A stretch of DNA of 64,000 nt, from the NCBI GenBank assembly GCA_037917675.1, contig JAVCBW010000049.1:1-64000 (forward strand). Direction: 5' to 3'. The stretch is from Thermoproteota archaeon (GTDB lineage: Archaea; Korarchaeota; Korarchaeia; B14-G2). The position numbers and the translations under genes are program-made. This document shows positions 17,093 through 24,110 of this stretch, one piece after another; the first letter of the stretch is position 1; every line of letters begins with the position of its first letter. A model generated the notes under the pieces. The model ran no database searches. It saw only the letters and a list, made by a program, of their open reading frames with translations, and was not told the DNA's origin.

Positions 17093-17434
17093 TTGGAGAC
17101 CTGTGAGGTAGTTGAGTTAAAGTTCCCAGGAGAGCTTATGGGTAAGGAGGTTATAGATAGTAACGCCCGGAGGATAGGAGTTGTTAAGAGAATACTGCTT
17201 GTAATGCCTCAGATGACTGTAAGAATGATCGTACAGGGGAAGGGAGATCAAGAGCTACCTATATCATCAGAGGATATAGCCAAAGTCAGCGGGTTGATCC
17301 AGCTTAACAAAAGCTATGAAAAGCTAGAGGAGATAGACGTTGGAGAGGTCTCTAAGCTGAGAGTGAAGATATTTAGAGAAATACAGGAAAAGCTGAAGAA
17401 GCTCTATGGGAGATCTGGGTTCATGGGTCAATAA
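17093..17434 (+). CDS. PRC-barrel domain protein (CdpB-like)
   Basis: ELMGKEVIDSNARRIGVVKRI...PISSEDIAKVSGLIQL PRC-barrel pattern. Confidence 0.8.
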   Translation: METCEVVELKFPGELMGKEVIDSNARRIGVVKRILLVMPQMTVRMIVQGKGDQELPISSEDIAKVSGLIQLNKSYEKLEEIDVGEVSKLRVKIFREIQEKLKKLYGRSGFMGQ

Positions 17435-18696
17435 GAAACCGTTAGAGAGTAGTCTACGTCCCCTAATACGCGTATTGCAGCCTTTCTAACTCGCTCTCTA
17501 TCTTCTTCAAAACTATAGACTCTAATTATATTCATAAACCTCTTCATGAAGTCGATTAGCTCAGATATGCTTGAGCTTTCAACCTTAATTACCTCACCAC
17601 AAACCCTACGGTGTATAGGTATTCTCATGTCCTCTGAAGGAGGCCCCCAGTGGTAGGGTACAGTTGGTAGGGTTGGTGTGTCTATGATTATCCTCTCCAT
17701 GGGAACCCCGGATTCAGCTGAAAGCTCTTCCCTCAGCTTATTTCTCACAGCTTCACTCCTAAATAAGGCTACTACATGACGATCTCTTAGGAACATAGTC
17801 CTCTCATATGCCGCCTTGAGAAGCTTCCTGGCTTCCAATCTCTCCACGATGCTTCCTGCCCTCGGGTGCTTCTTTAGAAGAACCCACGTCGTATAGTCAT
17901 CTAGCGAGCAGTAGAAGCTTGGATCCAGCAACTGTCCCCGGGAAATCTCGTCTTCTATCTGCTCTAGAGCCATATTTATCATCAACTGGACTGCTCGTGA
18001 CGTCTTGTGGAAGTATATCGTTCGAAAGGCTTCCATTCTCCCTATCAGCAAAGCCTCTAGTGCTGGGAGAGCTTTTTCATCCAGTGAAAGTACATCATCC
18101 ACTACATCTATGTTATAGATTATCCTATAGATGTCTATGTTTCCATATCCAGCTCCTGTATGGAGGGAATCTCTAACTACAAAATCTAGCTTGTCCACGT
18201 CTATGGCACTTCGGATTATCTGATTCATAAACTGAGGCTTATGTGAAACACCTATACATAGGCTGGAGATCTCGCTTCTAGAGAAACCATAGTCTTCTAA
18301 GATGTCTCCTATTTCCGTTTTCTCCACTAAAAGCTTGGACATATCCTCATGATTGAGCCCTGTCTTCCTCTCGAGAAAGGGTTCAAATGAGTGGGAAAAT
18401 GGCCCATGGCCGACATCATGAAGGAGAGCAGCAATCCTTATAGCCTGCATATCCTCTTCGGACATGTACTTGCTGAGCCTTTCTCCCGCTATTCCAGCCA
18501 GGTGCAGAACACCAAGAGAATGCTCGAATCTGGTGTGTGTAGCTCCAGGGTAAACGTAATTTGAGCCAGCTAACTGCTGTATTCGTCTGAGCCTTTGAAA
18601 GACCTTAGTGTCAGCCAGCTTCACCTCAGCCTCTGTCAGCGAGACATAGCCATGGACTGGGTCCTTAATCAGCTTCACAGGCTCCTTTAGAGGCAT
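17428..18696 (-). CDS. HD-domain phosphohydrolase (SAMHD1/dNTPase-like)
   Basis: IKDPVHG, FQRLRRIQQL, HTRFEHSLG, LLHDVGHGPFSH, DVDKLDF..RD. Confidence 0.93.
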   Translation of the reverse strand: MPLKEPVKLIKDPVHGYVSLTEAEVKLADTKVFQRLRRIQQLAGSNYVYPGATHTRFEHSLGVLHLAGIAGERLSKYMSEEDMQAIRIAALLHDVGHGPFSHSFEPFLERKTGLNHEDMSKLLVEKTEIGDILEDYGFSRSEISSLCIGVSHKPQFMNQIIRSAIDVDKLDFVVRDSLHTGAGYGNIDIYRIIYNIDVVDDVLSLDEKALPALEALLIGRMEAFRTIYFHKTSRAVQLMINMALEQIEDEISRGQLLDPSFYCSLDDYTTWVLLKKHPRAGSIVERLEARKLLKAAYERTMFLRDRHVVALFRSEAVRNKLREELSAESGVPMERIIIDTPTLPTVPYHWGPPSEDMRIPIHRRVCGEVIKVESSSISELIDFMKRFMNIIRVYSFEEDRERVRKAAIRVLGDVDYSLTVSY

Positions 18697-18705
18697 ACTA
18701 CCCCC

Positions 18706-19107
18706 TCATCTAAATAGTGTTATCTGAGACATGTTTATCTCAACAAGCTTAGATCTGTCAATGTCCTTAAATAGCCTCAGAGGAATCTGATCTACTAGAG
18801 GTATCCCAGCTAGAGCACAGCCTGCAGCTGTGATGCTTCCAGCTTGAGCAACTATCATCCCCTTGGGAGCTAACCCCCTCTTATAGAGCCTATATATGAC
18901 GTATGCTCCAACTGTACTTCCTGATTCAGCTGTGAACACTAGTATGTGATCTGATACACGCTTCCCTGCTCTAGGACCTTTCAGCAGAATTCCCGTCACA
19001 GGATCTATGTCTCCAAGAAACGATATGGGAGTATAGAGAACCAGAGGGGGGGCCTTGGCTCTCCCGGGTACTATGCACCTGCCATTAACAGTCATGTACT
19101 TGTACAA
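18706..19107 (-). CDS. Aconitase X swivel subunit (DUF126) / phosphomevalonate dehydratase small subunit
   Basis: PISFLGDIDPVTG, GSTVGAYVIY, GIPLVD. Confidence 0.9.
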   Translation of the reverse strand: MYKYMTVNGRCIVPGRAKAPPLVLYTPISFLGDIDPVTGILLKGPRAGKRVSDHILVFTAESGSTVGAYVIYRLYKRGLAPKGMIVAQAGSITAAGCALAGIPLVDQIPLRLFKDIDRSKLVEINMSQITLFR

Positions 19108-19115
19108 GACACCAC

Positions 19116-20296
19116 CTATGATGTAAAACTATCGATTATTTCCTTTAAGCTGAGCAAGACTACATGCTTTCTTGCTAGAGTTGGGAGATAGTGTGCTGCT
19201 TTAGCTGAGTTTGTCGCTATAGATTTAAAGGGAAGCCTCTCAGTAGGTGCGACAACAGGACACACGCCACTAAAGATCTCAGCTCCAGCCTTCTCAAGTA
19301 GCTGAGCAATCCCTAACTTTTCTGCATAGACAAGGGCTTTAGGTGATGTGAAAAGCCATAGCCTCTTCCCCCTTGAGACCCTTCTCCCTTTGAGCATACA
19401 TGCTAGCTGCTTGAGCTCTGGAAGAGTTAGGTGAGGGCATCCTATAGCTGCTATCTCAGCTTCAGCAGCAGAGGAGAGGCTTACCATGACCTCCTGCAGT
19501 GACTCTCTGGTGACAACCAGCTTATGCGTGGAAACGCCTTTCTGAGTTATCATGGAGACCCTCCCTGATGCTGCTGCAGCAGAAACTATTAGTTTCAGAA
19601 TGCTCCATGGAAGCCTATCTATTCCTTCAAGCTTAGCTACCTGTATGCTTTGGGATCCTATCAGGTAGCCTAAAGCTGAGTACTCTAGATCGCTCCTAGG
19701 CCTATACTGCAGCACTACCTCGACCTCTGGTTTTCTGTTCTCATCGAGATGTAACCCATATTCTGGTGTTTTCCCTATGATCGCAGCTGCAATAGAAGTT
19801 ATGCCGCTTTCTCTATTGGTATACATCCCTAGGAAACTATTCGCAAAGCATACAGCAGAAGACTCACCCCATGCAACATGTGCTCCAGCTCTAGTCAGAG
19901 AAACAGTGTATGGAGTACACGTAAGCGTTAGAGTAGCGCCCATCTTCTGTAGAGAATTTAGAATCTCAGTTTGAGCAGCTCTGAAGCTATGGGAGTCACC
20001 TAGAACACCTGGTCTCCTTACATCCACAGCAGCAGGATTCACTGTCGTAGGCACTTTGACCTTAGCTCCACTGTCAGCTAGATCTTTGAGGAGCTCTCTG
20101 CCAGCATCACCTATGTTCTTGTATGAAATTGTGGCGCCTACACCCTGGTGTAGGCGTTTCCACTCACATGAGCAGACTCTATTGGAATTAGGCGAGATGC
20201 ACCTAGCGCCTCACCAACAGAGAGAAGTACTCTCATACAGCGGGCTACAGCTCCTCTTGAGCTCAGAATCTCCTCTTCTTCTCTTGTAAGCTGCAA
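19116..20296 (-). CDS. Aconitase X catalytic subunit (DUF521) / phosphomevalonate dehydratase large subunit; two exons (20296-20158, 20128-19116), 383 aa after splicing
   Basis: Exon 1 (TTG start after GGTG SD) MQLTREEEEIL...GEALGASRLIPIESAHVSG; exon 2 ISYKNIGDAG...PTTVNP, TCTPY, WGESSAV, TNRE, GCPH, CPVVAP, TNSAKAAHY. The ORF track finds only the portion from 20054. Confidence 0.9.
20129..20157 (-). other. 29-nt BHB-type intron in mRNA
   Basis: Sense strand GTGG-AA|A-CGCCTACACC-AG-GGTGTAGGCG-CCAC-AA|T: central helix GTGG/CCAC, two 3-nt bulges, perfect 10-bp hairpin; contains an in-frame TAG and shifts the frame. Confidence 0.85.
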
Positions 20297-20305
20297 ATAT
20301 AGCAC

Positions 20306-20737
20306 CTATAGCTGTTCTTCAACGAGCCTCCTATACTCCTGAGAGGAGAGAAGGTTATTCTTCTCTGCTTCTAGGTTATCTGGAGATATTACTATCAGCC
20401 ATCCCCTCCCATATGGGTCTTGAGATATTAGATCGTAGTTCTCACCTCTACCACTTTGAACCTCATGGTTCACTTCTATGATTGTCCCAGTGAATGGCGC
20501 ATATATGTCGAAAGCCCCCTTATACGACTCAACAACGCCGAATGGCTGTCCTTGCTTGGTTTTCTCGCCTTCGTCTGGAAGTATCACCCGAGTTATCTCC
20601 TCAAGCTCTCGGATAGCATATGAAGTTAACCCTACGCGGACTAGATTCTCCTCTATCCTAGCCCACTCATGGGTTCTCGTATACAGGAGATCTCTAGGAA
20701 AATGCAGTTCTCTCCGTGTAGCCAACTTAACACCCAA
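20306..20737 (-). CDS. gcvH: Glycine cleavage system H protein
   Basis: YTRTHEW, VGLTSYA, lipoyl motif VESYK, DPYGRGWL. Confidence 0.9.
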   Translation of the reverse strand: MGVKLATRRELHFPRDLLYTRTHEWARIEENLVRVGLTSYAIRELEEITRVILPDEGEKTKQGQPFGVVESYKGAFDIYAPFTGTIIEVNHEVQSGRGENYDLISQDPYGRGWLIVISPDNLEAEKNNLLSSQEYRRLVEEQL

Positions 20738-20766: not shown

Positions 20767-21726
20767 TTAGATATCCTCTATTCCAGCTTCAGTTATCCTG
20801 AAGGGAGCTTCTCTCTCAGGTAAGATCGGTGAATCCACTACCCTGGCAATTCTCATGTTTTCAGGAGCCTTACGAATATAAACTCGCGTCTTGGGGAGGT
20901 GAGCTAGCGTGTGGCCTCCAGCAGCATTCTCGCGTCTCTCTGATCTTATTGGAGACAAAACGTGGTTAGTTATAAGTACAGCTAAGTTAAACTCTTCAGC
21001 AATACGTGTAAGTGTAGCTAGCTCCTCTCTCACAGCCTGCTGCCTTGCAGGAAGCATATATAGCTCTGGGTACTCTGATCTATAGTGGTGGAGAAGCGAG
21101 TCCACAACAATAAGTTTTATGCTAGATAAGTCTACTATCCTATCTATTGACGATATGACAGCATGCTGGTGGCTAGCAGATATGGCTCTAACCACTTTTA
21201 TAGCTGAAAGAGTCTGGCTTGGATCCATTCCACGCATCTCAGCCATTTCAGCTACTCTACGTGATGAAAAAGCTCCTTCTGTATCTATGTACAGGGCGCC
21301 AGACGATAACCCTCCTTGAGCTCTAGGAAGCTGGACATTGATACATAGCTGCATGGCCAGCTGCGTTTTCCCAGCGCCATATGGGCCAAATACCTCTGTA
21401 ACGCTGTTTGTCTCTATTCCTCCACCTAAGATTTCATCCAACATGCTTGATCCGGTGGTTATATACGCTATAGTTTCTCTCATGCGAAGAGAAACCTGGT
21501 AGGCTGACTCAGCTCTTATCTCTATTAGCCGCCCTGCCTCCTCTATCAGTCTCCTCACTATCCTCCGAGACAGCCCTGTTTTCTCCCTTATCTCCTCAGA
21601 GGGAGTGAGAAGCAGGTCTTCTACCGTGGATACTCCCATCTTAGCTAGCTTATCATAAACCTCACTCTTCATTCCAAGCTTTGCTATGAGCTTAATCAGG
21701 GGAGTCTTACTCAACAAAATCACCAT
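20767..21726 (-). CDS. RadA-family recombinase (divergent, possibly a paralog)
   Basis: HhH N-domain, ITTGS..LDEILGGGIET, GPYGAGKTQ, YIDTEG, LIVVDS, GGHTLAH. Confidence 0.88.
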   Translation of the reverse strand: MVILLSKTPLIKLIAKLGMKSEVYDKLAKMGVSTVEDLLLTPSEEIREKTGLSRRIVRRLIEEAGRLIEIRAESAYQVSLRMRETIAYITTGSSMLDEILGGGIETNSVTEVFGPYGAGKTQLAMQLCINVQLPRAQGGLSSGALYIDTEGAFSSRRVAEMAEMRGMDPSQTLSAIKVVRAISASHQHAVISSIDRIVDLSSIKLIVVDSLLHHYRSEYPELYMLPARQQAVREELATLTRIAEEFNLAVLITNHVLSPIRSERRENAAGGHTLAHLPKTRVYIRKAPENMRIARVVDSPILPEREAPFRITEAGIEDI

Positions 21727-23976: not shown

Positions 23977-24110
23977 GGGCCCGTAGCTCAGTCTGGATGG
24001 AGCGCCGCCCAAGTGGGTGCATGCCTTATAAGGGGCTCCCCGATACACTAGTGTAGGCATCGGGGGGCTGAGAGAGCCGGAGGTCGGGGGTTCAAGTCCC
24101 CCCGGGCCCA
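23977..24110 (+). tRNA. tRNA-Ile(UAU) with two introns: 24008-24022 (29/30) and 24031-24074 (37/38)
   Basis: Spliced GGGCCCGTAGCTCAGTCTGGATGGAGCG-CCGGC-CT-TAT-AA-GCCGG-AGGTCGGGGGTTCAAGTCCCCCCGGGCCCA; central helices GCGC/GTGC and CTTA/TGAG; TTTAAAA box upstream. Confidence 0.88.

Follow-up and report, generated by a model that had tools for sequence, protein, structure and literature searches.

A bulge-helix-bulge (BHB) intron in the cbf5 pre-mRNA of Crenarchaeota was reportedly described by Watanabe in 2002. According to the available text of two later publications (PMC7714728, PMC10485636), for over twenty years no archaeal protein-coding gene but cbf5 had been shown to contain a BHB intron within its reading frame. 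Yokobori (2009; PMC2738675), in the sections available, states that splicing is confirmed for cbf5 only and mentions earlier predictions of introns in other protein-coding genes. Schwarz (2020; PMC7714728) describes a BHB intron in the 5' untranslated region (5'UTR) of HVO_1309 in Haloferax volcanii, and the accessible part of that paper names cbf5 as the only other mRNA example. In the part of a 2023 review at hand (PMC10485636) at least two archaeal genes are counted as spliced and more are said to be probably awaiting discovery. Circles inside coding genes of Sulfolobus are described in the accessible text of Danan (2012; PMC3326292), which gives no spliced reads for new introns. Here we analyze a stretch of 64,000 nucleotides (nt) from a Thermoproteota archaeon (contig JAVCBW010000049.1 of assembly GCA_037917675.1, positions 1 to 64,000; “the window”), in which the gene for the large subunit of AcnX (aconitase X, DUF521; acnX hereafter) is interrupted by a 29-nt insert. 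The insert is very probably a tRNA-type BHB intron of the acnX mRNA, removed by the tRNA splicing endonuclease EndA and the ligase RtcB. In full-text literature searches neither acnX nor the gene for the archaeal elongation factor aEF-2, which is treated below as a further candidate, turned up as a reported host of a BHB intron; subscription-only papers and supplementary files lay outside the scope of these searches, and an earlier mention is possible.

The interrupted acnX gene and the fold of its insert

The genome (G000 in the following) is a metagenome-assembled genome (MAG) of 62 contigs and 1.78 Mb, 92.7% complete. The sister species used for comparison, G001, is likewise metagenome-assembled. 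The parts of the acnX gene are as follows (window coordinates).

20305-19116, minus strand: acnX large-subunit gene (two exons plus insert)
20158..20305, minus strand: exon 1, 49 codons plus base 1 of the junction codon; PF04412 positions 1-52, E 1.8e-12
20129..20157, minus strand: predicted BHB intron, 29 nt, from sequence and folds
19116..20128, minus strand: exon 2, bases 2-3 of the junction codon, 336 codons and stop; PF04412 positions 50-399, E 3.3e-99
20160..20163, minus strand: exonic 5' strand of the central helix (GUGG), same bases in G001
20122..20128, minus strand: third base of the 3' bulge (U20128) and 3'-exon strand of the weak outer helix, from sequence and folds

On the minus strand exon 1 ends with ...GCT CAT GTG AGT GGA A at position 20158 and exon 2 starts with TT TCA TAC AAG at position 20128. 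If the insert is kept, the frame of exon 1 runs into a TAG at 20140-20138 inside the insert, which leaves an open reading frame (ORF) of 55 amino acids (20138..20305); the next callable unspliced ORF begins with GTG at 20054 and encodes 312 amino acids. Upstream of 20054 the exon-2 frame contains no ATG, GTG or TTG, and unspliced RNA would therefore be unable to yield the conserved segment that follows the insert. Joining A20158 to T20128, in contrast, creates an ATT (Ile) codon and one continuous frame of 386 amino acids (...IESAHVSG-I-SYKNIGDAG...) from GTG 20305, and no other break was found in this joined frame. A second candidate start of exon 1 is TTG 20296.

The homology evidence places the break at a single point of the protein. 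The PF04412 profile has a length of 400, so the two exons together cover the full-length AcnX domain (the downstream piece was translated from 20126 for the Pfam match). Because the two matches abut at profile positions 1-52 and 50-399, the insert has no counterpart in the protein family. The best PDB match of exon 2 is 7cnr_A, a DUF521 protein of T. kodakarensis (E 4e-58), to which it aligns from chain residue 50 onward. Three cluster-cysteine motifs are kept in this alignment, namely TCTPY, IGCPH and, as the third, GVCPVV against DSCFVV. The [4Fe-4S] cluster ligands of the phosphomevalonate dehydratase of A. pernix are given as Cys122, Cys297 and Cys356 from mutagenesis in the accessible text of PMC10040528; going by the description in that paper rather than by a residue-by-residue mapping to the A. 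pernix enzyme, the three aligned motifs would be the ligand sites.

Aligned homologues show what an uninterrupted junction looks like. Among 80 AcnX loci of species-representative genomes, all of the 79 besides that of G001 are uninterrupted at this site (79/79). Most of them read ...G-(V/I)-SYKNIGDAG, where G and S are separated by a single residue, as in the joined frame; more distant AcnX types among the 79 have a different local motif. In a second set, 80 loci from metagenomes, the insert is missing from all 78 that could be assessed (77 by a motif test and L178 by eye), the other two being L228, with too little upstream sequence, and L163, which is G001's own contig and contained in L059. 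When 40 relatives were searched with the AcnX profile, 36 had a match, 35 of them continuous, and G001 alone was split, at the same profile position. Scans of genome and metagenome contigs for further carriers returned only G001's contig as a close relative.

The insert and its borders fold into the expected recognition element. Exonic GUGG pairs with intronic CCAC in a central helix of 4 base pairs (bp; G20163-C20131, U20162-A20132, G20161-C20133, G20160-C20134), flanked on opposite strands by two bulges of 3 nt each, AAA at the 5' side (20159-20157) and AAU at the 3' side (20130-20128). Inside lies a hairpin of 9 bp, all of them Watson-Crick, with arms at 20156-20148 and 20143-20135 and a 4-nt loop at 20147-20144. 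The predicted intron thus begins with the third base of the 5' bulge (20157), continues with the hairpin and the CCAC strand (20134-20131) and ends with two of the three bases of the 3' bulge (20130-20129). The outer helix between the exons has 2 bp in the strict register, A20164-U20127 and the wobble pair G20165.U20126; in the minimum-energy fold of G000 it has 5 bp together with a 3' bulge of 4 nt. Given this weak outer helix, the element amounts to a relaxed BHB rather than a clear case of the strict hBHBh' form. The fold goes beyond chance, being far more stable than that of shuffled controls, with a z-score for the 56-nt region of -4.44 in G000 and of -4.28 in G001.

From this fold the following course would be expected. 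In the acnX transcript the exonic GUGG would pair with the intronic CCAC between the two bulges, with the 9-bp hairpin inside. EndA would cut after the second base of each bulge, that is between 20158 and 20157 at the 5' side and between 20129 and 20128 at the 3' side, and RtcB would join the exons at the Ile codon into the 386-aa frame. Cleavage, ligation, a circular intron product and any regulatory use are predictions from the sequence.

A first-pass annotation of this DNA, made from the letters alone, had proposed a BHB intron in the AcnX/DUF521 large-subunit gene, and Pfam continuity, the spacing in homologues, the insert in G001, selection on the gene and the precedent of cbf5 all bear this out. 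The 29-nt insert at 20129-20157 with its in-frame TAG is in the sequence as claimed, gene finders may be expected to make the truncated calls it foresaw (the DNA as it stands gives the 55-aa and 312-aa ORFs), and the comparison of DUF521 orthologs that it proposed finds the insert kept in G001 and missing from all other assessable loci. The folds also reproduce both versions of the weak outer helix that it had given, 2 bp or, slipped, 5 bp. Two of its details need to be changed. The 4-bp helix and the 3-nt bulges AAA and AAU hold, while the “perfect 10-bp hairpin” is effectively one of 9 bp, because a tenth pair would leave a loop of 2 nt. Likewise the canonical cuts do restore AHVSG-I-SYKNIGDAG, while the protein length of 383 amino acids applies only to a start at TTG 20296.

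Conservation, selection and alternative readings

G001 belongs to the same genus and is the only other species of the family in our collection; its AcnX protein is 76% identical. Its acnX gene carries an insert of the same length (29 nt) at the same site, with 25 of 29 bases identical. Of the four differences, three are in the loop (intron positions 11, 13 and 14) and one affects the second base of the 3' bulge (position 29), while the paired bases are identical throughout (22/22). The 3' bulge of G001 thus reads AGU, and the rest of the BHB core is unchanged. Fourfold-degenerate sites of acnX, in comparison, are 47.7% identical between the two species. If these sites are taken as neutral and independent, the chance of 22/22 identical bases is about 9e-8 and that of at least 25/29 about 2e-5. 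One exonic change in G001 touches the outer helix, a synonymous GTG>GTA that turns the G.U pair of the strict register into A-U and breaks a G-C pair of the slipped register; this favors the strict register, if only as a hint. Since no compensatory double change separates the two sequences, what backs the acnX stem is conservation, not covariation.

Both exons are under purifying selection. Between G000 and G001 the ratio of nonsynonymous to synonymous substitution rates (dN/dS) of acnX is 0.125 overall at a dS of 1.29, with 0.18 for exon 1 and 0.12 for exon 2. In the 20 codons on each side of the junction it drops to 0.014, and nowhere in the gene is constraint stronger than in the 25 codons that separate the insert from GTG 20054. 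The insert in G001 and the purifying selection on both exons together argue that the interrupted acnX is neither a pseudogene nor an assembly error or a repeat.

These data bear on the reading as an inactivated or split gene, which would give no full-length phosphomevalonate dehydratase (PMDh), the enzyme to which we assign acnX below, or would leave a 55-aa peptide plus a truncated 312-aa protein. The annotated DNA does contain exactly these two ORFs, and MAG lineages can lose pathways. This is nevertheless very unlikely in view of the purifying selection in two species and its peak around the break. In a split gene the 25 codons from the insert to 20054 would be untranslated, yet they are under the strongest constraint, and the conservation of the insert itself far exceeds the neutral level. 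The present copy has no further lesions, and it is the only AcnX locus in the 92.7%-complete genome; the check for a second intact copy that the first-pass annotation had suggested thus came back empty. A search of the same genome for diphosphomevalonate decarboxylase (TIGR01240) gave no match, and no classical decarboxylase route was found.

Slightly less probable still is translational recoding, in which the mRNA stays unspliced and the ribosome passes the insert by bypassing or frameshifting (a hop like that of T4 gene 60, or a -1/+2 shift). The insert does start right after a GGA glycine codon, it holds GGT and GGC codons in the exon-2 frame, and a stable hairpin lies downstream of the take-off position. 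No stop codon, however, follows directly after the GGA, and there is no matching GGA codon on which to land; landing on the in-frame GGC, or anywhere else in frame within the insert, would add at least 2 residues, where comparable homologues have exactly one. By eye there is no slippery heptamer at the insert (no dedicated frameshift predictor was used), and read-through in the exon-1 frame meets the TAG. Under recoding the exact BHB geometry would remain an unexplained coincidence. The same architecture, moreover, is found in cbf5, whose splicing is established in other archaea according to the available text of PMC2738675, and in aEF-2, where the insert varies in length (22, 30 and 31 nt).

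The intron might, on the other hand, be cut without productive joining, so that the mRNA is destroyed or down-regulated and full-length enzyme is rare or comes from an insert-free DNA variant. A parallel exists in yeast, where cleavage of mRNAs by the tRNA endonuclease leads to their decay (PMC10485636, in the section available), and rare insert-free variants would be compatible with contig-level data. We consider this hardly likely as well. The exons and the junction between them are under purifying selection, which calls for a continuous translated product, none of the contigs of two DNA runs is insert-free at depths of about 394 and 259, RtcB is encoded, and the archaeal cbf5 exons are ligated after cutting (same source and section). 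Finally, the idea of an assembly or sequencing artefact or of a recent mobile palindromic insertion, to which a MAG of 62 contigs and a palindromic insert might give rise, is effectively refuted: the same insert sits at the same site in a second species whose synonymous sites differ by about 52%, contigs assembled independently from the two DNA runs (which may be the source samples, compared at contig level) span 19800-20500 with 0 differences, and the insert is single-copy, no second copy with up to 6 substitutions being present in the genome.

Splicing enzymes, further predicted mRNA introns and genome-wide scans

Removal of a BHB intron from acnX would require EndA and a ligase, the enzymes named in the first-pass annotation, and the genes for both are present in G000. 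RtcB is encoded (E 7e-173), and the EndA gene and the two other mRNA introns discussed here are located as follows.

G000:C1:137609-138712 (L034:670-1773), plus strand: EndA, 367 amino acids, with two PF01974 (tRNA_int_endo) stretches and PF02778 (N-terminal-type domain)
G000:C41:37876-37900 (loci L037, L038), minus strand: cbf5 BHB intron, 25 nt, family profile split 5-70 / 67-321
G000:C53:82637-82666 (loci L042, L161), minus strand: predicted aEF-2 BHB intron, 30 nt, in the GTPase domain of elongation factor 2

The C-terminal half of EndA is nearest to the catalytic alpha subunits of Crenarchaeota (3p1z_B, 3ajv_B, 2zyz_B), and the N-terminal half shows a weak match to structural beta subunits (3p1z_A, 3ajv_A). 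The single chain thus looks like a beta-alpha fusion of what in Crenarchaeota are usually two separate genes. EndA of the (alpha-beta)2 and epsilon2 types cleaves non-canonical introns, as stated in the accessible part of PMC5829648. ARAGORN predicts introns in 19 of the 32 tRNAs that it finds genome-wide; some of these are implausibly long (e.g. 1,879 nt on C7) and probably false calls. One of the predictions, a tRNA-Pro(CGG) with a 49-nt intron, lies in the window itself (23977-24110, plus strand).

The cbf5 gene of the same genome carries a textbook hBHBh' intron with a central helix CCCU/GGGG, a 7-bp stem and an outer helix of at least 4 bp, the removal of which gives ...GTL|DPP... In G001 the cbf5 intron has 22 nt and a remodelled hairpin. 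Across 40 genomes of the class cbf5 is split or has internal stops at the same place in the families f1 and f3 and in several genera of f2, and since the split is this widespread, mRNA splicing of the BHB kind appears to be old in the class.

The first-pass annotation had suspected that other such introns might be hidden in this lineage, and a BHB scan of the genome indeed returned the candidate in aEF-2. Here exon 1 matches GTP_EFTU positions 2-32, and exon 2 matches GTP_EFTU positions 48-188 together with the EF-G domains II, III, IV and C (TIGR00490 positions 60-720). The unspliced frame stops, and the canonical cuts (UA|A, AG|U) would restore ...LLLTD-Y-DEEERKRGITI... The predicted intron consists of a 4-bp helix, 3-nt bulges and a 9-bp hairpin. 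It has 31 nt in G001, owing to a 1-nt indel in the loop, which in a translated sequence would cause a frameshift. In G023, a genome from another family of the class, it has 22 nt; central helix and 5' bulge are unchanged there, and the hairpin is different. In a three-way alignment 2 of 24 predicted pairs show compensatory double changes. The core pattern is present in 3 of 40 genomes of the class, belonging to two families; none of the other 38 relatives shows a split of aEF-2 at this position. As an aside on this gene, genomes of the families f1 and f3 have two EF-2-like genes each (G000:C53:80662-82794 and G000:C57:66018-68033; also G001:C14, and G023:C6 and C14). With about 440-620 bits both copies stay under the TIGR00490 cut-off of 738, the f2 genomes have one copy of about 880 bits, and in G000, G001 and G023 it is the higher-scoring copy that carries the intron.

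Genome-wide scans put these three genes into perspective. A strict motif was defined by Watson-Crick pairs throughout the central helix and throughout a stem of 8 bp or more, with a loop of 3-8 nt, on either strand. It occurs 9 times in the 1.78-Mb genome, compared with 2-6 times in five dinucleotide-preserving resamples. Two of the nine motifs fall exactly on frame breaks of conserved genes, namely acnX and aEF-2, and the remaining seven are antisense to (long) ORFs or intergenic; these seven match the chance level. A compact-hairpin BHB scan returned 712 motifs, 21 of them with at least 40 open codons on each side, and recovered cbf5 and acnX with aEF-2 as an addition. Looser searches had little selectivity: 2,459 frame-“restoring” hits were obtained with a loose definition and 27,604 candidates with a relaxed motif plus a “no open unspliced frame” filter, and a codon-usage score picked mostly abutting neighbor genes. 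Frame restoration alone thus has no discriminating power, which only motif quality together with continuous homology provides, and the three mRNA introns are therefore to be read as a minimum for one structural class, the compact hairpin with a strict 4-bp helix and 3-nt bulges, a search that misses long or irregular interiors and single-bulge introns.

Thirty further candidates (10 + 20) were Pfam-searched on both flanks. Four of them read through intact when unspliced and were rejected as introns (C5:14322, DEAD helicase; C61:24656, KaiC-like; C21:89208, ThyX; C54:21612, FTR). The remaining candidates have no common family across the break and seem to be joined by chance, either where two genes meet or within proteins of unknown kind, which is no proof against introns. 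A mobile-element origin was likewise discarded, as neither the acnX nor the aEF-2 intron has a second copy with up to 6 substitutions and the cbf5 intron has four chance-level matches with 6 substitutions. Two candidate stretches, G000:C30:6485-6583 and G000:C33:6415-6513, are identical and have the same open-frame lengths, which suggests a duplicated region or redundant contigs.

Several points weigh against a spliced acnX mRNA and have to be set beside this evidence. We infer splicing here from the DNA sequence and from predicted folds. The outer helix is weak, with 2 bp in the strict register, and is absent from the minimum-energy fold of G001; that the fused EndA would accept such a relaxed BHB is an assumption. 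The acnX intron occurs in two genomes only, with no compensatory double change between them. In a tighter BHB scan, furthermore, 270 frame-restoring hits stand against about 234 expected by chance, which is no enrichment. Because frame restoration by loose motifs is not enriched, the case for acnX rests on motif quality and homology and not on a general scan statistic.

Function of acnX and comparison with known systems

Directly downstream of the large-subunit gene lies the gene of its presumptive partner.

18706..19107, minus strand: AcnX small (swivel, DUF126) subunit gene; PF01989, E 9e-23

Against the NCBIfam model NF003046 (DUF126) this small subunit scores 103 bits, which is under the cut-off of 163. 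We assign acnX to AcnX type IIb, as the putative PMDh large subunit, because it is homologous to the archaeal group, has the cysteine pattern, lies next to the small-subunit gene and fits the pathway context. Genes for mevalonate kinase and for a UbiD-family decarboxylase are present in G000, and from this pathway context the product is predicted to dehydrate mevalonate 5-phosphate. If both the PMDh assignment and the single-copy status hold, the isoprenoid supply would depend on splicing; that splicing also regulates this supply is speculation. As to the surroundings of the gene pair, a glycine-cleavage H-protein gene (20306-20737, minus strand) ends directly against the acnX start codon, and the cluster is flanked by RadA (20767-21726) and by an HD-domain protein (17428-18696).

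Each of the three introns is found near the start of its ORF, the family-profile positions being about 50 (acnX), 70 (cbf5) and 59 (aEF-2), and given this placement unspliced transcripts would yield only short peptides. The companion intron in aEF-2 and the clustering within roughly the first 50-70 codons add to the interest of the acnX finding. One might go further and regard tRNA-type splicing as a routine layer of gene expression in this small uncultured Thermoproteota class. At least three core genes would then need EndA and RtcB, namely cbf5 (rRNA/tRNA pseudouridylation), aEF-2 (translation elongation) and acnX (membrane-lipid precursors), the common gate could couple translation capacity to membrane synthesis, and introns would still be arising, with acnX confined to one genus and aEF-2 to two families. 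We regard this wider scenario as rather unlikely.

If the acnX and aEF-2 introns are confirmed, a metabolic gene and an essential translation factor of the same genome would join the list of BHB intron hosts, mRNA introns would have been gained in recent lineages, and a search for BHB motifs of high quality at breaks over which homology continues would offer a recipe for finding more of them. There is also a consequence for annotation, since gene finders will take acnX and aEF-2 in these MAGs for truncated genes or pseudogenes, and the mevalonate pathway would then be wrongly scored as incomplete.

Of the described systems, the cbf5 intron of Crenarchaeota is alike in that a short insert within the ORF, bounded by a BHB motif and situated in the first roughly 50-70 codons, would break the frame or introduce a stop if kept. 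In cbf5 the tRNA splicing endonuclease excises it and ligation of the exons follows, and the same is predicted for acnX. The two hosts differ, cbf5 encoding an RNA-modification enzyme and acnX a metabolic enzyme. They also differ in range and in structure: the cbf5 intron is widespread in the class, whereas that of acnX is confined to one genus (2 of 40 genomes) and has a weaker outer helix. Splicing of cbf5 is experimentally confirmed, whereas for acnX we infer it from sequence. HVO_1309 of Haloferax volcanii offers a second mRNA in which a BHB motif is a substrate of the archaeal splicing endonuclease, as predicted for acnX. Its intron, however, lies in the 5'UTR and leaves the frame intact, whereas the acnX protein would require splicing, and its host is a euryarchaeon with a homodimeric EndA, unlike the single-chain EndA found here. 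Within the same genome the aEF-2 candidate resembles acnX in its compact build, its position in the 5' part of the ORF and the conserved motif that canonical cuts would restore. It differs in that its outer helix is much stronger (the consensus fold adds 10 pairs to the 2 adjoining the bulge), its spread is wider (3 of 40 genomes, two families), its length varies and two compensatory changes are present. Archaeal pre-tRNA introns at canonical and non-canonical positions, finally, are recognized by the same arrangement of a 4-bp helix between two 3-nt bulges, cut at the same places and processed by the same enzymes as is predicted for the acnX intron. Their product is a structured RNA, whereas that of acnX would be an mRNA, and since the acnX exons encode protein, the exon side of the helix must, unlike in pre-tRNAs, also meet codon constraints.

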